From: a virus
Taxonomy: Duplodnaviria; Heunggongvirae; Uroviricota; Caudoviricetes
Strand: one strand, 5' to 3'
DNA: 64,000 nucleotides
IMG/VR virus record: IMGVR_UViG_2529292906_000009
Span: 1 to 64,000 of that record
The notes beneath the pieces are model-generated. The model made no database searches. It worked only from the letters and a program-made list of their open reading frames with translations, and was not told the origin of the DNA. Both the position numbers and the translations under genes were made by a program. How positions within the stretch are numbered: the first letter of the stretch is position 1; each line of letters begins with the position of its first letter. This document shows positions 55,480-62,682 of the stretch, piece after piece.

Positions 55480-55760
55480 CAACCTGCGACCCGCTGTCAA
55501 ACAGGTGGCAGGACGTGACAGGGTTGACAGACTGGCACTTACGAAACCAGCAGGCCGAAGCCTCCCCATCACGCCCCACCATAATTCGGGCGTAACGTGG
55601 TTTTACGGACACAAAAATACCGCAATATCGGAAATGTGCGGTTGTCCGCGTAAGTATTCAGGCTGTCAAACCTGGTCGCAGAATTTGCTGCGACGGCGGA
55701 ACTATAAGCCTGAACGATTAAAAGGTCAATATGATGCGAAAAGATAGCATTCGTGACTTA
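55480..55760 (-). ncRNA. c4: region expected to encode the c4 antisense RNA and its target repeats (boundaries not resolved)
   Basis: Lies between the operator and icd as in P1 immI; repeated TTGACAG-type motifs and their complements. Confidence 0.3.
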
Positions 55761-55767
55761 AAAATAC

Positions 55768-55784
55768 AAATTTATTAGAGCATT
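55768..55784 (-). promoter_or_regulatory. C1 operator (16/17) upstream of the immI operon
   Basis: aaatttattagagcatt read directly. Confidence 0.6.
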
Positions 55785-55882
55785 GTTTGTTTAATAAATA
55801 CACAAATGGATCTAATAACCTCTTTTTTTAAAGGCGAAAATATGTACCCTAAATGAGTTATAAGGCAGGTGAGGTTATAATG

Positions 55883-56527
55883 AGAAAACTATTACTACCG
55901 TTATTATTTATGGCTGGGACTGTTAATGCAGCATCAAGCGTAAAGGAGATTTGTACCGATTATACGAAATACCTTGGGCACGTTTACGGCTTTGCTGTCA
56001 GTCAAGACGAATCCATGCGCAAGAAGTTACTGTCAGATATGAAACGCCTTAAACTTTCTGAAGCGATGGTGCAGCAAGAACTGTATAAAGTCGCAACCAA
56101 CGAAAATGCTAAATATCAATATTCTCGCCTGTTAAATCCCGACGCAAACGAGATCAATCGAAGCTCTTTCGATTATATGGTAAAGGCATGCGAAACCGCT
56201 CCTGATTTTGCTATCCCTAGCTGGGGTGTGCTGGTGGCGAGCAATGCCGTTAATAAAGAAGACGTTGGAAGAAATGGCATTGATTCAATCAGAAACGCCC
56301 CGGGAATGCGCCATCAAAACGTGCAGGGTACGCTTGAAGAGCGGGCCAGGGGGCCGGGTACAAACTCCCCAATGGGAAACCTCTCACCAGAGGAATTGCA
56401 AGAGTATAACCAACGGATGGAGCAGTATGAGAAAGCGGCACGCGAACAAATGGAACAACAAAAGAACGGCTCACTTAATACCTTCCAGCAAGGTTTAAAA
56501 GCGCTTAATTTACCCTATGAATGGTAA
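55883..56527 (+). CDS. secreted protein (signal peptide) carrying a GMRxxxVQGTLEERARG motif shared with Sit
   Basis: MRKLLLPLLFMAGTVNA signal peptide; 17-aa motif nearly identical to one in the sit product. Confidence 0.5.
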   Translation, partial: RKLLLPLLFMAGTVNAASSVKEICTDYTKYLGHVYGFAVSQDESMRKKLLSDMKRLKLSEAMVQQELYKVATNENAKYQYSRLLNPDANEINRSSFDYMVKACETAPDFAIPSWGVLVASNAVNKEDVGRNGIDSIRNAPGMRHQNVQGTLEERARGPGTNSPMGNLSPEELQEYNQRMEQYEKAAREQMEQQKNGSLNTFQQGLKALNLPYEW

Positions 56528-56588
56528 ATATATTATGGATAACCAATTAAAATATTGATAATCGTTAATATCCAAAGGAGATAAATTA

Positions 56589-57065
56589 ATGCGCATCAAA
56601 CGATTTTTTCTAATTCTTGCTTTGCTTACTCCATTTTCATCAATGGCAAATGTAAGCAAATGGTCAACCGGCGAGACTCATGGTGTTCGTTCTTATGCTG
56701 TTTCCAGCAAAGATAATTATACGCTTACATTTGAGTGCGATGTTGGATTTAATAATACGGATCCCAATCAAGTAGGAACACGACTACTCACTCTCATGAA
56801 AACAGAACCTGGCGGTGAGTCATTTGATGCTAAAAAAGAACAAATAACGCTGAAAGTTGGTGATGATGAATATCCTATCAGTTCTATCGGTTCCTCTGTG
56901 GGTGATAGTTACTGGTATGGTTTTTGGTCAGATACCCCTGATATGGAAGTTAAAACATTCGATGCATACGTAGACGGAAAAAAAATCGCAACATTTACGC
57001 TACGTAAGGCCGCAGAGCTTTTCAACGCGGCACCTGAAGATGGCTGCCTGAAGCGCGCAAAATGA
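56589..57065 (+). CDS. secreted protein (signal peptide)
   Basis: MRIKRFFLILALLTPFSSMA signal peptide. Confidence 0.5.
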   Translation: MRIKRFFLILALLTPFSSMANVSKWSTGETHGVRSYAVSSKDNYTLTFECDVGFNNTDPNQVGTRLLTLMKTEPGGESFDAKKEQITLKVGDDEYPISSIGSSVGDSYWYGFWSDTPDMEVKTFDAYVDGKKIATFTLRKAAELFNAAPEDGCLKRAK

Positions 57066-59289: not shown

Positions 59290-62200
59290 ATGGAAAGAAA
59301 AAACGCCAACATTGACGATGTGATAAGGACGGTTGAAACCGCCAGCGCAAAAGAGCTGGAAGAGCTTGCAGGTATTCGGGAAGCCGTTGAAGATTTGAAA
59401 GGGGGGCGAGTTGCTACAGTTGATCCTGTCTCTCGCAGTGTGTCGGCATTAAATCGCACAATCGAAAATTCCCGGCCAGACTTTGTGGCCAATGCGCCAT
59501 CAGTGGACCCTATTGTTGAGGCAATGAAACGGCTTAATTTAGGGGACGTTTCTCGTGTAGTTCAGGAGGATGTTGCTCTACAGGAACCGCAGGCCAAATC
59601 AACTACGCGAAAGGGTAAAAAACGACGCAAGAAGGCTATAACAGAAGATGTAAAGGCGCAACGGACCGAAGCAGCCGAACACGCTCGCGAAATGTTCGGT
59701 CAAAAAGGCGGTGCGCAAAAAAGCCAAAACCAACGCGATGCGCGTGGTCGTTTTATTGGAAAGTCAGGGAGTAAGGCCGCAGCGGAAGATGCCCGTGCTG
59801 AACGTGCTGAAAAGGCCTGGCGCAAAGAGGATGATGAGCGTCTAAATGCTGAATCAGGTTTATTAAAAAAACTGTCAAAAGTAGCTGAAGGCATAGGTAA
59901 CCCTTCAGAGACTCGTGCCGTCGATGCGTTAGGTTATGCCGTTGCTGGTCCATTGTGGGCAGCAGGGAAGGAGCTTGGCGGGATATCAAAAGAAGTTGGT
60001 GGATCGCTTAATGGTGCCAGAAAGTCTATTGCCGATGTGATTCGTGGCAATGACGATAACAGCCGTAGAAAAGGTTTTTTTAGGCGTAAATCGCAAAATA
60101 GTGCCGATGTCGTTCAGGTTAACACCCAAAAACGGACGGTTCAGGAACTTCAGGAGCAGACCAGCGAAATTAAAGAGGGCAATGACAAGATTCTCAGCGC
60201 CCTTGATCAGATAGCCAAAAACACCGGGAAAAAGAAGGGCGGCTTGCTGTCCAAACTATTTAGCCTGTTAGGGAAGGGGGACGGTGGCGTCGCGTCGTTG
60301 TTAATGGGGCGTGGCATGCTGAAAAAAGCTGGAGCACTCGCTTTTGGCGCTCTGGGGGCAAAGAAACTTGTAGGGATGCTACGCGGTGGTGGCAAGAAGG
60401 CTCTCGCCCATGAAGGCGGAGATTTGGCTGCCCGGGCAGCAGGTAAACTTGGATTAAAGGCCGTTGGTAAAGGAGCGTTACGCGCAATTCCCCTAGTCGG
60501 CACAGTGGCTGGAGGTATTTATGATGCGGTAACCGGTTGGAATGATACAGAAGCGCAACGTCGAGCGTTTGGGCTTAAATCAGGACAAGATCCATCATTC
60601 CAGCAAAAAGCCGCTTATACGTTAGCTAATGTTCTTGATATGGGGGGACTGGTATCTGGTATTAGCAGCGCCATTGGTGAGGTTCTCAAATCACTTGGAT
60701 TTGAGGATATCGGCAATATGTTGCAATCATTTTCGACGGAAAGTATTGCCCTGGCCATTGATAGTGGGATTACCAACTTAGAAACTTATATTTCTAACCT
60801 TGGCGACACCATTTCTACCAAGTTCGATGATTACACAGCAAAGATTGGTGATGCTGTTTCAGCATGGTTTAGCGATACATCTAATAAGCTGCTTGAAAAG
60901 CTGGATGCCATCAAAGACTTCTTTACTGTCGATAACCTGAAACAGGTTTTCAGTGATGCAATTGATAGTGCAATTGATTTCATTAAGAACCCAGGGAAAC
61001 ACATTAAAGAGGCGGCTGGTAATATTTGGGATGGGGTTAAAAATTTACCCGGTAAAGCATTAGATGCAGCGGTTGATGCCGTTAAAAATACCCCTGCGGC
61101 AATGATTGTATCAAAAATACCCAATCCGATCGGCGAGGCTAATGCGAAAGAAATCACTCCAGAGTTAAAAGCTCCGGTTAATAGCCACCAGGAGACGTCT
61201 AATTCTAAAACTGAATCCGATGCCAAACAGAGTAATATTGCTACCCGCGTGATAAATGCGGCACTGGACACGGCGAAAGATAGCAATAAAACAGTAAAAC
61301 AAACTGCCAATCAGATTATCAATGCAAATGCCGTAGAAACGGGCAATAGCGCGTTGCAGAAAATTGATAAAGCTATTGGTCAAAATAGCTCGTCATCATC
61401 GTCGCTTAATACCACTGGCACCAGGAATGACATTCAGAAAGCTGCGGATACCTACAACAATGGCAACTTGGATGTAAAAGTCGGAAGTCTTGGCGCTGAA
61501 GGTAAGGCTAATCTCGATAAGTTGGCTCCGTATTTTGCCGAACTAGAGAATAAATACGGTCTTCCAGAAGGCACTCTTTACGCGATTGCTGCAACTGAAT
61601 CTGGTGGTAATCCGTATGCAAAATCCCAAACCGGTGCTCTGGGGATGTTTCAGTTCACGGGGATTGCTCGTGAAGAGACTGGCTTAGCTGAAGGTGAATC
61701 GTTTGATCCTGTGAAATCGGCAGAAGCTGCGGCTCTTCTCATGAGCAAATATCTGAAGCAAGCCAATGGAGACTTAAACGAGGCCATCACTGCATATAAT
61801 GCTGGGTTTGGCACTATCAATAAGTGGAAAAAAGGCACAGGTGACTTATCGAAAGAAAACCGTGAGTACGCGATCAAGGTCAATACTCATCGTGCTCGCT
61901 ATTTAGGTGGTGAAATCTATACACCTGGAGCAGGAGCACAGGGTGGGGCGCAATATGGAGTGAGGGGACCACTGCCTGATAACGCTGTTATCGATCAGTC
62001 TACTGGCCTGGCGTTTACCCCTGGTGATAGCCCGTTTGAGAAAGGCGGTCTGGTAGACAAAATTGGCAATGCTGTTGGCGTTAACGATCTGGTCAACAAA
62101 TTCATGAATGGCCGGGGTATGCGTCGGGAAGTCGTTCAGGGAACGCTCGAAGAACGTGCACGAGGGAGGGGGACCGCAACAGCTGCTGGCAATGTGTATG

Positions 62201-62682
62201 TTGATACTCCGATGCCAGTCGAAGAGGCGCGTCCGGTGGCCAGCAACTCAAGTTACTTTGACCAACTCGGCGCACAAATGGGGATTGATGGACTATTCGA
62301 TAAACTCCGCAACTCGCCGGGGATGCGGAAAAATAATGCGCCTGAACCAGCCTCCACGTCCCAGGTGACGACTGCCGCCAACGATTTGCAGCAACCAACC
62401 GGTCGTATGCAGATAGACGGGCAGGTTATTAGTGACCTTGGTGGTTCCGGTGCCAAGCCGACAATGCAGTTGGCTGATAATACCGTTTCACTTGATGGTG
62501 AAACGAAGCGGCTGTTTGCGCAGATGACCTCATTGCTTGCCAGGATTGAGGAGCACACCAAAGACTCGGCGAAAGGCCAGGGAACTGTCGTAAAGGTCAG
62601 CACGCCTCAGCCGGGCGTTATGCGCACGGTACCACTGTCAATTGATGATCCGTTGATGAATGACTACGCGAGAGTTGATTGA
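59290..62682 (+). CDS. sit: structural injection transglycosylase (soluble lytic transglycosylase domain)
   Basis: 1130-aa ORF with SLT motifs ESGGNPYA...GALGMFQF...AYNAG; same size class as recalled P1 Sit. Confidence 0.8.
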   Translation: MERKNANIDDVIRTVETASAKELEELAGIREAVEDLKGGRVATVDPVSRSVSALNRTIENSRPDFVANAPSVDPIVEAMKRLNLGDVSRVVQEDVALQEPQAKSTTRKGKKRRKKAITEDVKAQRTEAAEHAREMFGQKGGAQKSQNQRDARGRFIGKSGSKAAAEDARAERAEKAWRKEDDERLNAESGLLKKLSKVAEGIGNPSETRAVDALGYAVAGPLWAAGKELGGISKEVGGSLNGARKSIADVIRGNDDNSRRKGFFRRKSQNSADVVQVNTQKRTVQELQEQTSEIKEGNDKILSALDQIAKNTGKKKGGLLSKLFSLLGKGDGGVASLLMGRGMLKKAGALAFGALGAKKLVGMLRGGGKKALAHEGGDLAARAAGKLGLKAVGKGALRAIPLVGTVAGGIYDAVTGWNDTEAQRRAFGLKSGQDPSFQQKAAYTLANVLDMGGLVSGISSAIGEVLKSLGFEDIGNMLQSFSTESIALAIDSGITNLETYISNLGDTISTKFDDYTAKIGDAVSAWFSDTSNKLLEKLDAIKDFFTVDNLKQVFSDAIDSAIDFIKNPGKHIKEAAGNIWDGVKNLPGKALDAAVDAVKNTPAAMIVSKIPNPIGEANAKEITPELKAPVNSHQETSNSKTESDAKQSNIATRVINAALDTAKDSNKTVKQTANQIINANAVETGNSALQKIDKAIGQNSSSSSSLNTTGTRNDIQKAADTYNNGNLDVKVGSLGAEGKANLDKLAPYFAELENKYGLPEGTLYAIAATESGGNPYAKSQTGALGMFQFTGIAREETGLAEGESFDPVKSAEAAALLMSKYLKQANGDLNEAITAYNAGFGTINKWKKGTGDLSKENREYAIKVNTHRARYLGGEIYTPGAGAQGGAQYGVRGPLPDNAVIDQSTGLAFTPGDSPFEKGGLVDKIGNAVGVNDLVNKFMNGRGMRREVVQGTLEERARGRGTATAAGNVYVDTPMPVEEARPVASNSSYFDQLGAQMGIDGLFDKLRNSPGMRKNNAPEPASTSQVTTAANDLQQPTGRMQIDGQVISDLGGSGAKPTMQLADNTVSLDGETKRLFAQMTSLLARIEEHTKDSAKGQGTVVKVSTPQPGVMRTVPLSIDDPLMNDYARVD

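Follow-up and report, generated by a model that had tools for sequence, protein, structure and literature searches.

In contractile and non-contractile tails alike, the C-terminal end of the tape-measure protein lies at the tail tip and leaves first. The tape-measure protein is implicated in superinfection exclusion by HK97 gp15, TP-J34 Ltp and lactococcal Sie2009, and T4 Spackle (Sp) inhibits the gp5 tail lysozyme from the periplasm. How contractile-tailed temperate phages like P1 pass their DNA across the periplasm, and how prophages block that step, is poorly understood, and the mechanism of classical P1 Sim exclusion, which reportedly acts after adsorption, was never solved. T4 Imm binds the T4 tape-measure protein gp29 (bioRxiv 10.64898/2026.03.06.709160). 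In the passages of PMC8546580 that cite Devlin 1982 and Kliem & Dreiseikelmann 1989, sim is the classical superinfection-exclusion determinant of P1; it is dispensable for lytic growth (PMC10695390) and lies in a recognised hypervariable cassette region of P1-like phage-plasmids (PMC9603915). The P1 tape-measure protein has been assigned as Sit (PMC9024508), whose C-terminal part sits in the baseplate centre (PMC9024508, PMC12810830) and which appears in cryo-electron microscopy maps of P1 as low-resolution density alone at that position, the protein itself being unresolved (PMC12810830). Here we describe the sim locus of a 64-kb stretch of viral DNA (positions 1 to 64,000 of IMG/VR record IMGVR_UViG_2529292906_000009; hereafter, the window), which is a P1-like (Punavirus) phage-plasmid, and a sequence block shared between an exported protein of that locus and Sit.

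By its sequence and position, the window gene at 55880..56527 (plus strand) is the full-length form of P1 simA at the superimmunity/superinfection-exclusion locus, and it encodes a SimA-like exported protein of 215 amino acids (aa; PHROG 3933). The protein matches the phrog_3933 profile over residues 1-214 (E 5e-136), and some of its NCBI homologs carry the name 'simA domain protein'. It contains the 17-residue motif GMRHQNVQGTLEERARG at 56303-56353, 14 of 17 residues of which are identical in the Sit motif GMRREVVQGTLEERARG (62116-62166; Sit aa 943-959). An earlier note on this DNA, made from the letters of the sequence, had pointed to this motif in both proteins and to a degenerate second copy in Sit, and these are present as it described. 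BLASTP of the exported protein against Sit returned 23/47 identities with a pairwise E of 8e-9; a comparison with all 399 six-frame open reading frames (ORFs) of the window that reach 60 aa gave Sit as the sole non-self match (E 3e-7), and none besides these two contained the motif. The relationship extends to the two families, the exported protein matching the Sit profile phrog_2533 (E 8e-8) and Sit matching phrog_3933 (E 5e-6). Alignment of the two family alignments with hhalign gave a probability of 96% (E 1.8e-9) over 35 columns, pairing residues 133-167 of the exported protein with Sit residues 935-969, and found no wider homology outside this block. On the plus strand, the block IDSIRNAPGMRHQNVQGTLEERARGPGTNSPMGNL, which contains the 17-residue motif, spans 56279..56383 in the SimA-like gene, and its counterpart VNKFMNGRGMRREVVQGTLEERARGRGTATAAGNV, copy 1 of the block in Sit, spans 62092..62196.

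The resemblance resides in the protein sequences, as the earlier note had proposed in preference to a recent DNA duplication: 9 of the 14 identical residues use different codons, the DNA of the core is identical at 36/51 positions, and the proportion of synonymous differences (pS) between the copies is 0.75, at saturation. Nei-Gojobori comparisons of a 22-codon core gave saturated pS values of 0.6-1.0 throughout, with proportions of nonsynonymous differences (pN) of 0.08-0.33 and a ratio of nonsynonymous to synonymous divergence (dN/dS) of at most 0.25 in all calculable comparisons but one (0.47, SimA-like L044 against Sit L078). Such values indicate long-standing purifying selection on the block in both families. 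Of 34 compared positions, the window SimA-like motif shares 22-23 with Sit motifs from the D6-like and L080 lineages, and 19 with its own Sit. Recent gene conversion between the exported-protein and Sit copies was also considered, and is ruled out by the saturation of synonymous sites.

P1-like elements from Escherichia, Salmonella and Klebsiella encode homologs of the SimA-like protein, as does a metagenomic lineage that is more distant. Every homolog examined keeps a helical N-terminal domain and the core N-x-[PR]-G-M-R-x-Q, which is invariant even in the lineage where the N-terminal domain is visibly the most diverged (identity judged by eye). In Sit, aa ~901-960 form a conserved island, with a mean column identity of 0.76-0.77 against 0.56 before it and 0.30-0.41 after it among eight diverged Sit sequences. 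Neither of the grounds on which the earlier note would have set the motif aside, absence from homologs or a low-complexity setting, was encountered. The block is also highly specific. A 52-column profile of the block, run with hmmsearch against 1.84 billion representative proteins (E<=1e-3), recovered 10 proteins: three clusters each of Sit and SimA-like proteins, three fragments of one or the other kind, and P0033, an unrelated repeat protein that matches a 17-position sub-stretch alone, in six repeats. Since the search gave only these, the motif is private to the Sit and SimA-like families of P1-like elements; at the sensitivity of the profile, no host protein resembling it was found among the 1.84e9 representatives. 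A word-indexed search with a short motif profile returned 4 fragments only.

The SimA-like gene occupies the sim (superimmunity) slot of P1, as judged from its flanks, the adjacent C4 RNA and a C1 operator-like site, all of which match P1; the earlier note had not recognised this context. It lies between immI (c4-icd-ant) and pmgC-tub-pmgB-sit, and the cassette flanks are 95-99% identical to immI and to the pmgC-tub-pmgB-sit operon of P1/P7. P1 matches the leftmost 320 bases of the queried region at 95.6%, a stretch that corresponds to the c4 promoters, Oc4, the predicted PsimA and simA, the start of the SimA-like gene coinciding exactly with that of P1 simA; the right end matches the LPsit/pmgC region of P1. 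The C4 antisense RNA of the immI operon was located at 55501..55586 (minus strand; Rfam RF01695, 69.6 bits, E 7e-13) and its a1b1 target element at 55655-55707 (minus strand; Rfam RF03163), placing the cassette divergent from immI, the same arrangement as sim in P1. A C1 repressor operator-like site (55768..55784, minus strand) separates the divergent c4 promoters from the promoter region of the cassette and has 1 mismatch to ATTGCTCTAATAAATTT, the C1 operator consensus. Its equivalence to P1 Op51/Oc4, and that of the promoter region to PsimA, was assigned by position from the P1 annotation.

Comparison with P1 also accounts for the resemblance to Sit going unseen there. The first 45 residues of P1 SimA (52 aa) are identical to the window protein, after which the sequence diverges and stops; by this alignment, P1 simA is a truncated stump of the full-length gene, without the helical domain and the motif, and the unrelated simB and simC replace the rest of the cassette. 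As P1 lacks the motif-bearing part of simA, the similarity to Sit could not be seen in that phage. The point of divergence after 45 codons (window 55853-56020 versus P1 L001 4155-4313) marks a recombination junction with simB-simC.

The likely start codon of the SimA-like gene is ATG 55880, preceded by a Shine-Dalgarno-like GGTGAGG at about 55869-55875, and an alternative in-frame ATG at 55853, the start used in the P1 simA annotation, would give 224 aa. The secreted-protein ORF that the earlier note placed at 55883..56527 is therefore retained, with its start moved from 55883 to one of these two codons. The N-terminus MRKLLLPLLFMAGTVNA, followed by ASS, is a predicted Sec signal peptide (55880..55930, plus strand) with an n-h-c pattern and a VNA-A cleavage site, and the homologs in the alignment likewise begin with a signal-peptide-like segment and an AXA-type site; both observations were read from the sequence. 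The SimA-like protein is probably exported, with the periplasm as its putative location.

Beyond the signal peptide, three parts can be recognised: a helical domain, a flexible linear motif of ~35 residues and a variable tail. An AlphaFold2 model built on a 10-sequence alignment assigned a predicted local distance difference test score (pLDDT) of about 84-94 to residues 21-120 of the conserved, all-helical N-terminal domain (aa ~20-125; 55937..56254, plus strand). This domain holds two invariant cysteines, C24 and C103 (55883-based numbering), and probably one disulfide. Residues 129-166, covering the motif region, fall below a pLDDT of 50 and are predicted to be disordered. In a model of Sit residues 720-1130, based on an alignment of 4 sequences, the SLT domain is confidently placed and everything after it, the motif included, likewise has pLDDT below 50. 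Disorder of the motif in both proteins is what would be expected of a partner-binding linear motif.

The tail of the exported protein (56384..56527, plus strand) is modelled as a low-confidence helix and differs among alleles. In the window allele the core is followed by a VQGTLEERARG extension and the helix; in a second type (E. coli 'type B', S. arizonae and the distant-lineage P0035-38) the extension is followed by a stop codon within 5-20 residues. Because some alleles end 5-20 residues past the motif, the retained unit consists of the helical domain and the motif. In other alleles the tail is made up of Cys-containing modules. The extreme C-terminus of the window protein (56480-56527, ...GLKALNLPYEW) resembles that of the distant homolog P0039 (...ALKSLNLPFKLY), the intervening tails being different, and may constitute a second short conserved element.

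Taken together, the position of the gene, its predicted export and the conserved Sit-like block lead us to propose, at a probability of roughly 0.4, that the SimA-like protein acts in superinfection exclusion from the periplasm, where the Sit-like linear motif that it displays would compete with the Sit of an incoming phage. The protein would be made from the prophage-side cassette and would wait in the periplasm of the lysogen. Upon tail contraction by a related phage, the C-terminal part of Sit, carrying SLT and motif, would be the first part of Sit to appear in the periplasm, and the SimA-like motif would occupy the partner needed by the Sit motif, which might be a component of the host envelope, another protein of the tail tip or Sit itself. 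Alternatively, the SimA-like protein might co-assemble with Sit as a dominant-negative. Either way, genome delivery would be blocked after adsorption, amounting to exclusion by tape-measure mimicry. We infer the periplasmic location, the expression in lysogens, the exclusion phenotype and the competition with Sit. Placement of the cassette outside the late operon, with LPsit downstream and an upstream region with the predicted sigma-70 promoter PsimA common to P1, bears on the second of these. The complete statement, that of a prophage-encoded periplasmic decoy whose motif is homologous to a Sit segment and which blocks P1-like genome delivery through competition for a partner or poisoning of Sit assembly, is tentative and, in our view, rather unlikely as a whole. 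The link to Sit that the earlier note had drawn from a shared signal holds, and the two functions suggested for that signal are not supported: no evidence points to a protease-processing site, and a role in targeting for export is implausible, given that Sit lacks a signal peptide and enters from the virion.

Several observations weigh against exclusion by competition with Sit. P1 SimC, the only experimentally shown exclusion protein of the locus, is unrelated to the SimA-like protein and has no Sit-like motif, and, as P1 simA ends before the motif, the P1 Sim phenotype must be independent of it. A third allele type (Klebsiella L043, D6-like L047 and P0039) lacks the extension and has Cys-containing modules instead; the loss of the QGTLEERARG half from the Klebsiella, D6-like and P0039 alleles means that only the short core can be universally required. 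Cognate SimA-like and Sit motifs are not significantly more alike than non-cognate ones (permutation p 0.11-0.33 with six lineages), and addition of the distant lineage, whose Sit and SimA-like contigs were paired by 100% identity over a 5.6-kb overlap, yields a trend only (p 0.06-0.07, seven lineages). Sit motifs are alike in phages with and without a full-length SimA-like gene, so that no arms-race signature is visible. A simple promoter scan of the cassette returned nothing above background, leaving lysogen expression to rest on the predicted promoter of the P1 annotation, and the disorder predictions derive from shallow alignments of 10 (exported protein) and 4 (Sit) sequences.

In a different account, the shared block is an evolutionary relic or has independent structural uses: a piece of sit would have been captured long ago by the sim-locus gene, or the reverse, and retained for reasons that have nothing to do with Sit, such as serving as a linker or binding the YfjT-like partner protein, the copies being functionally unconnected. 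We consider this possible though improbable. The restriction of homology to 35 residues, with no similarity beyond them, is as expected from such a capture, and both the sim locus and Sit are visibly mosaic. Mosaic origin would also fit the base composition, the block having 57% GC in a 43% GC gene and its Sit counterpart 59%; the G/R/A/P-rich composition of the block, however, largely accounts for its higher GC. The dispensable extension in several alleles and the lack of significant cognate covariation point the same way. What a functionally unconnected relic does not readily explain is the persistence of the same residues. Positions N, G-M-R, Q, G, L/M, R-A and G are fixed in both families despite saturated synonymous divergence, and across lineages whose Sit proteins are just 47% identical over the aligned C-terminal region. 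In the distant lineage, moreover, G-S-M-A-[ED]-R-A takes the place, in both proteins, of the G-T-L-x-[ED]-R-A found in most enterobacterial ones, so that the two have this variant in common.

A protease site common to both proteins, the first of the functions suggested in the earlier note, would have the same, presumably periplasmic, protease cut near the motif, freeing the C-terminal part of Sit after ejection and the tail of the exported protein. The motif does lie in exposed segments of both proteins that are predicted to be disordered, natural alleles of the exported protein end a few residues past it, and the tape-measure proteins lambda gpH and T5 Pb2 are proteolytically processed. Known tape-measure processing is, however, cytoplasmic and takes place during assembly, where the exported protein would be absent, and cleavage determinants are typically far shorter than a conserved block of 35 residues. 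There is no candidate protease, and a text search of the P1 virion proteome paper met with no report of Sit cleavage (PMC9024508), all of which makes a shared cleavage site quite improbable. An equally poor prospect is a Spackle-like inhibitor or immunity protein, in which the Sit motif would dock on SLT and the periplasmic protein, small, helical and probably disulfide-bonded, would use the same peptide to inhibit the incoming SLT and protect the lysogen wall: the Sit motif does lie about 85 residues downstream of the SLT domain, but AlphaFold2 docks no motif on SLT in the Sit model described above (a weak indication, given its 4-sequence alignment), Foldseek found no fold similarity to any PDB entry, lysozyme inhibitors included, and Sit variants with the other SLT module (P0027, P0029 and L079 11347 onward) retain the same motif block, so that the motif does not track SLT type.

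The window sit gene (59290..62682, plus strand) encodes a tape-measure/injection transglycosylase of 1130 aa that matches phrog_2533 over its full length and has an SLT domain at aa 748-857 (61531-61860, plus strand; Pfam SLT, E 9e-27). The shared block falls between this domain and the C-terminal end of Sit, which is itself conserved. With its SLT domain, a length of about 1100 aa and a position after pmgB and before the baseplate genes, it has the features of an SLT-domain tape-measure protein, and its counterparts in P1, P7 and Ro157c2YLVW carry the annotation Sit. Sit proteins are mosaic, two SLT modules (a GMFQF type and a GAFQI/GPFQI type) being exchanged between otherwise near-identical proteins.

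The second copy of the block in Sit is degenerate and restricted to the core (DKLRNSPGMRKNNA; 62299-62340, aa 1004-1017, plus strand), around SPGMRKNNAPEP at about 62314-62349. Its BLASTP match has an E of 0.017, and the second hhalign match is weak alone. Copy 2 lies inside an insertion (window 62197-62420, aa ~970-1043) present in the E. coli P1-type Sit; the Sit proteins of Klebsiella, S. arizonae, the D6-like lineage and L080 do not have it. It occurs as two alleles, RNSPGMRKNNAPEP and INARGMRSNNSPQP, neither of which is associated with the type of cassette at the sim locus.

Directly downstream of the SimA-like gene, an ORF at 56589..57065 (plus strand) encodes a second exported protein, of 158 aa, with a signal-peptide-like N-terminus (MRIKRFFLILALLTPFSSMA, followed by NV), confirming the second signal-peptide ORF reported in the earlier note. 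It belongs to PHROG 3429 (phrog_3429, E 1e-80) and probably to the YfjT/YkfB family, a name taken from the RefSeq entry for a 99.3% identical copy and from the precomputed PF27224 (YfjT) match of the L081 homolog; the window protein itself had no match in the local Pfam copy. A YfjT/YkfB partner follows the SimA-like gene in all enterobacterial lineages examined (L028, L043, L047, L079 and L081). BLASTP among the window ORFs revealed no Sit-like motif in the second protein, and the papers searched offered no function for the family.

At least four cassettes of exported or membrane proteins share the sim slot (L028 9971-12144; P7 = L075 6008-7072; P1 = L001). One comprises the SimA-like and YfjT-like genes; another, a short SimA-like gene, a diverged YfjT-like gene and an extra gene for a 357-aa protein; a third, simB/simC of P1; and a fourth, upf50.5 (a glycine-rich lipoprotein) and upf50.0 (a coiled-coil exported protein) of P7. 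Neither PADLOC nor NCBIfam returned a match for any of the four. In the window, the cassette (55600-57000) has a GC content of 37-44%, against 46-52% in its flanks, and is moron-like in this respect. A 96-kb plasmid of E. coli strain 4973 carries the cassette region at 100% identity, and phage vB_EcoM-Ro157c2YLVW matches it at 97%. Beyond the site next to the cassette, a scan of the window for C1-operator-like sequences with at most two mismatches to the consensus yielded nine sites in all (55, 138, 17732, 23498, 33830, 33841, 37363, 54095 and 55768), versus 0.02 expected by chance, which is consistent with a complete P1-type C1 regulon.

The SimA-like gene is widespread among plasmids. In PLSDB, 267 plasmids match, 84 of them covering at least 80% of the SimA-like protein, and most of the lower-ranked records among the matches listed have the 48-codon stump alone, as in P1. 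Among complete E. coli genomes, 255/5426 match the gene or its remnant, and 79 carry the full two-gene cassette, almost always on plasmids. A cassette this common could affect transduction by P1 and how P1-like phage-plasmids with resistance genes spread. The distant metagenomic lineage, with P1-like genomes of ~100 kb, is an exception to the sim-locus position: its SimA-like gene lies away from immI and sit (L082 10001-10531, L084 10001-10651), flanked on one side by a possible PAAR-like gene (a faint Pfam match) and a serine/threonine-rich protein gene and on the other by an rdgC/DNA methylase block. A different small exported protein follows the SimA-like gene there, and the split between core-only and core-plus-extension alleles recurs. 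The gene is also present, at 99-100% protein identity, on short contigs of two metagenome-assembled genomes (MAGs), DXHF01000172.1 ('Candidatus Paenibacillus intestinavium') and JAFAFU010000019.1 (Bacillota), both of which are probably mis-binned.

Searches of Pfam, NCBIfam and PADLOC assigned no significant family to the SimA-like protein. A PTP-like phytase domain (PF14566) scored 26.7 bits against a cut-off of 27 and was rejected; in the sequence, neither of the conserved cysteines lies in the catalytic C-x5-R motif. A 96-aa ORF in another frame overlaps the SimA-like gene (window 56208-56498, plus strand); five 205-aa database 'homologs' (P0002, P0004, P0007, P0008 and P0016) switch into this overlapping frame and look like frameshift artefacts of read-level assemblies.

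Two of the window proteins can be compared with known families. The window Sit is a full-length, SLT-containing member of the P1-like Sit family (PHROG 2533), of which the shared block is a conserved feature, and the product of the 56589-57065 ORF probably belongs with the YfjT/YkfB proteins, exported proteins associated with the CP4-57 and CP4-6 prophages of E. coli K-12. The literature searched, of which the P1 genome paper was not part, contained no paper on the SimA-like family, on the 'simA domain protein' or on the shared motif. The cassette as a whole resembles the simA-simB-simC operon of P1 in occupying the same slot, divergent from c4-icd-ant and upstream of LPsit and pmgC, and in its upstream region, its first 45 simA codons and its signal-peptide products. 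It differs in that P1 simA is a 52-aa stump without helical domain and motif, and P1 SimC, a processed exclusion protein, and SimB are both unrelated to the two window cassette proteins (no BLASTP match at E<0.05) and show no similarity to Sit.

T4 Spackle offers a partial parallel, as a small exported helical protein that could meet the wall-degrading part of the incoming tail in the periplasm; the SimA-like protein differs in showing no sequence or fold similarity to it (Foldseek against PDB and BFVD), and no evidence points to SLT as its target. The helical domain had no relative with E below 0.9 in either collection (best PDB E 2.0, best BFVD E 0.9), and no Spackle, Ivy or PliC/MliC-type inhibitor appeared among the PDB matches.

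The closest functional analogy may lie with T4 Imm, HK97 gp15, Ltp and Sie2009, phage envelope proteins proposed to stop post-adsorption delivery at the tape-measure step. Imm and gp15 reside in the inner membrane and Ltp is a lipoprotein, whereas the SimA-like protein looks soluble and periplasmic from its sequence. With a full-length SimA placed at the superimmunity locus, the motif becomes a specific, testable hypothesis, and it also marks a candidate functional site in Sit; if the proposal is true, Sit residues 935-969 would be a functional site of the injection process. We know of no exclusion protein of the Imm, gp15, Ltp or Sie2009 type with a stretch of sequence in common with its tape-measure target, so that mimicry would be new among them; to our knowledge, superinfection exclusion through molecular mimicry of a tape-measure protein would be without precedent.

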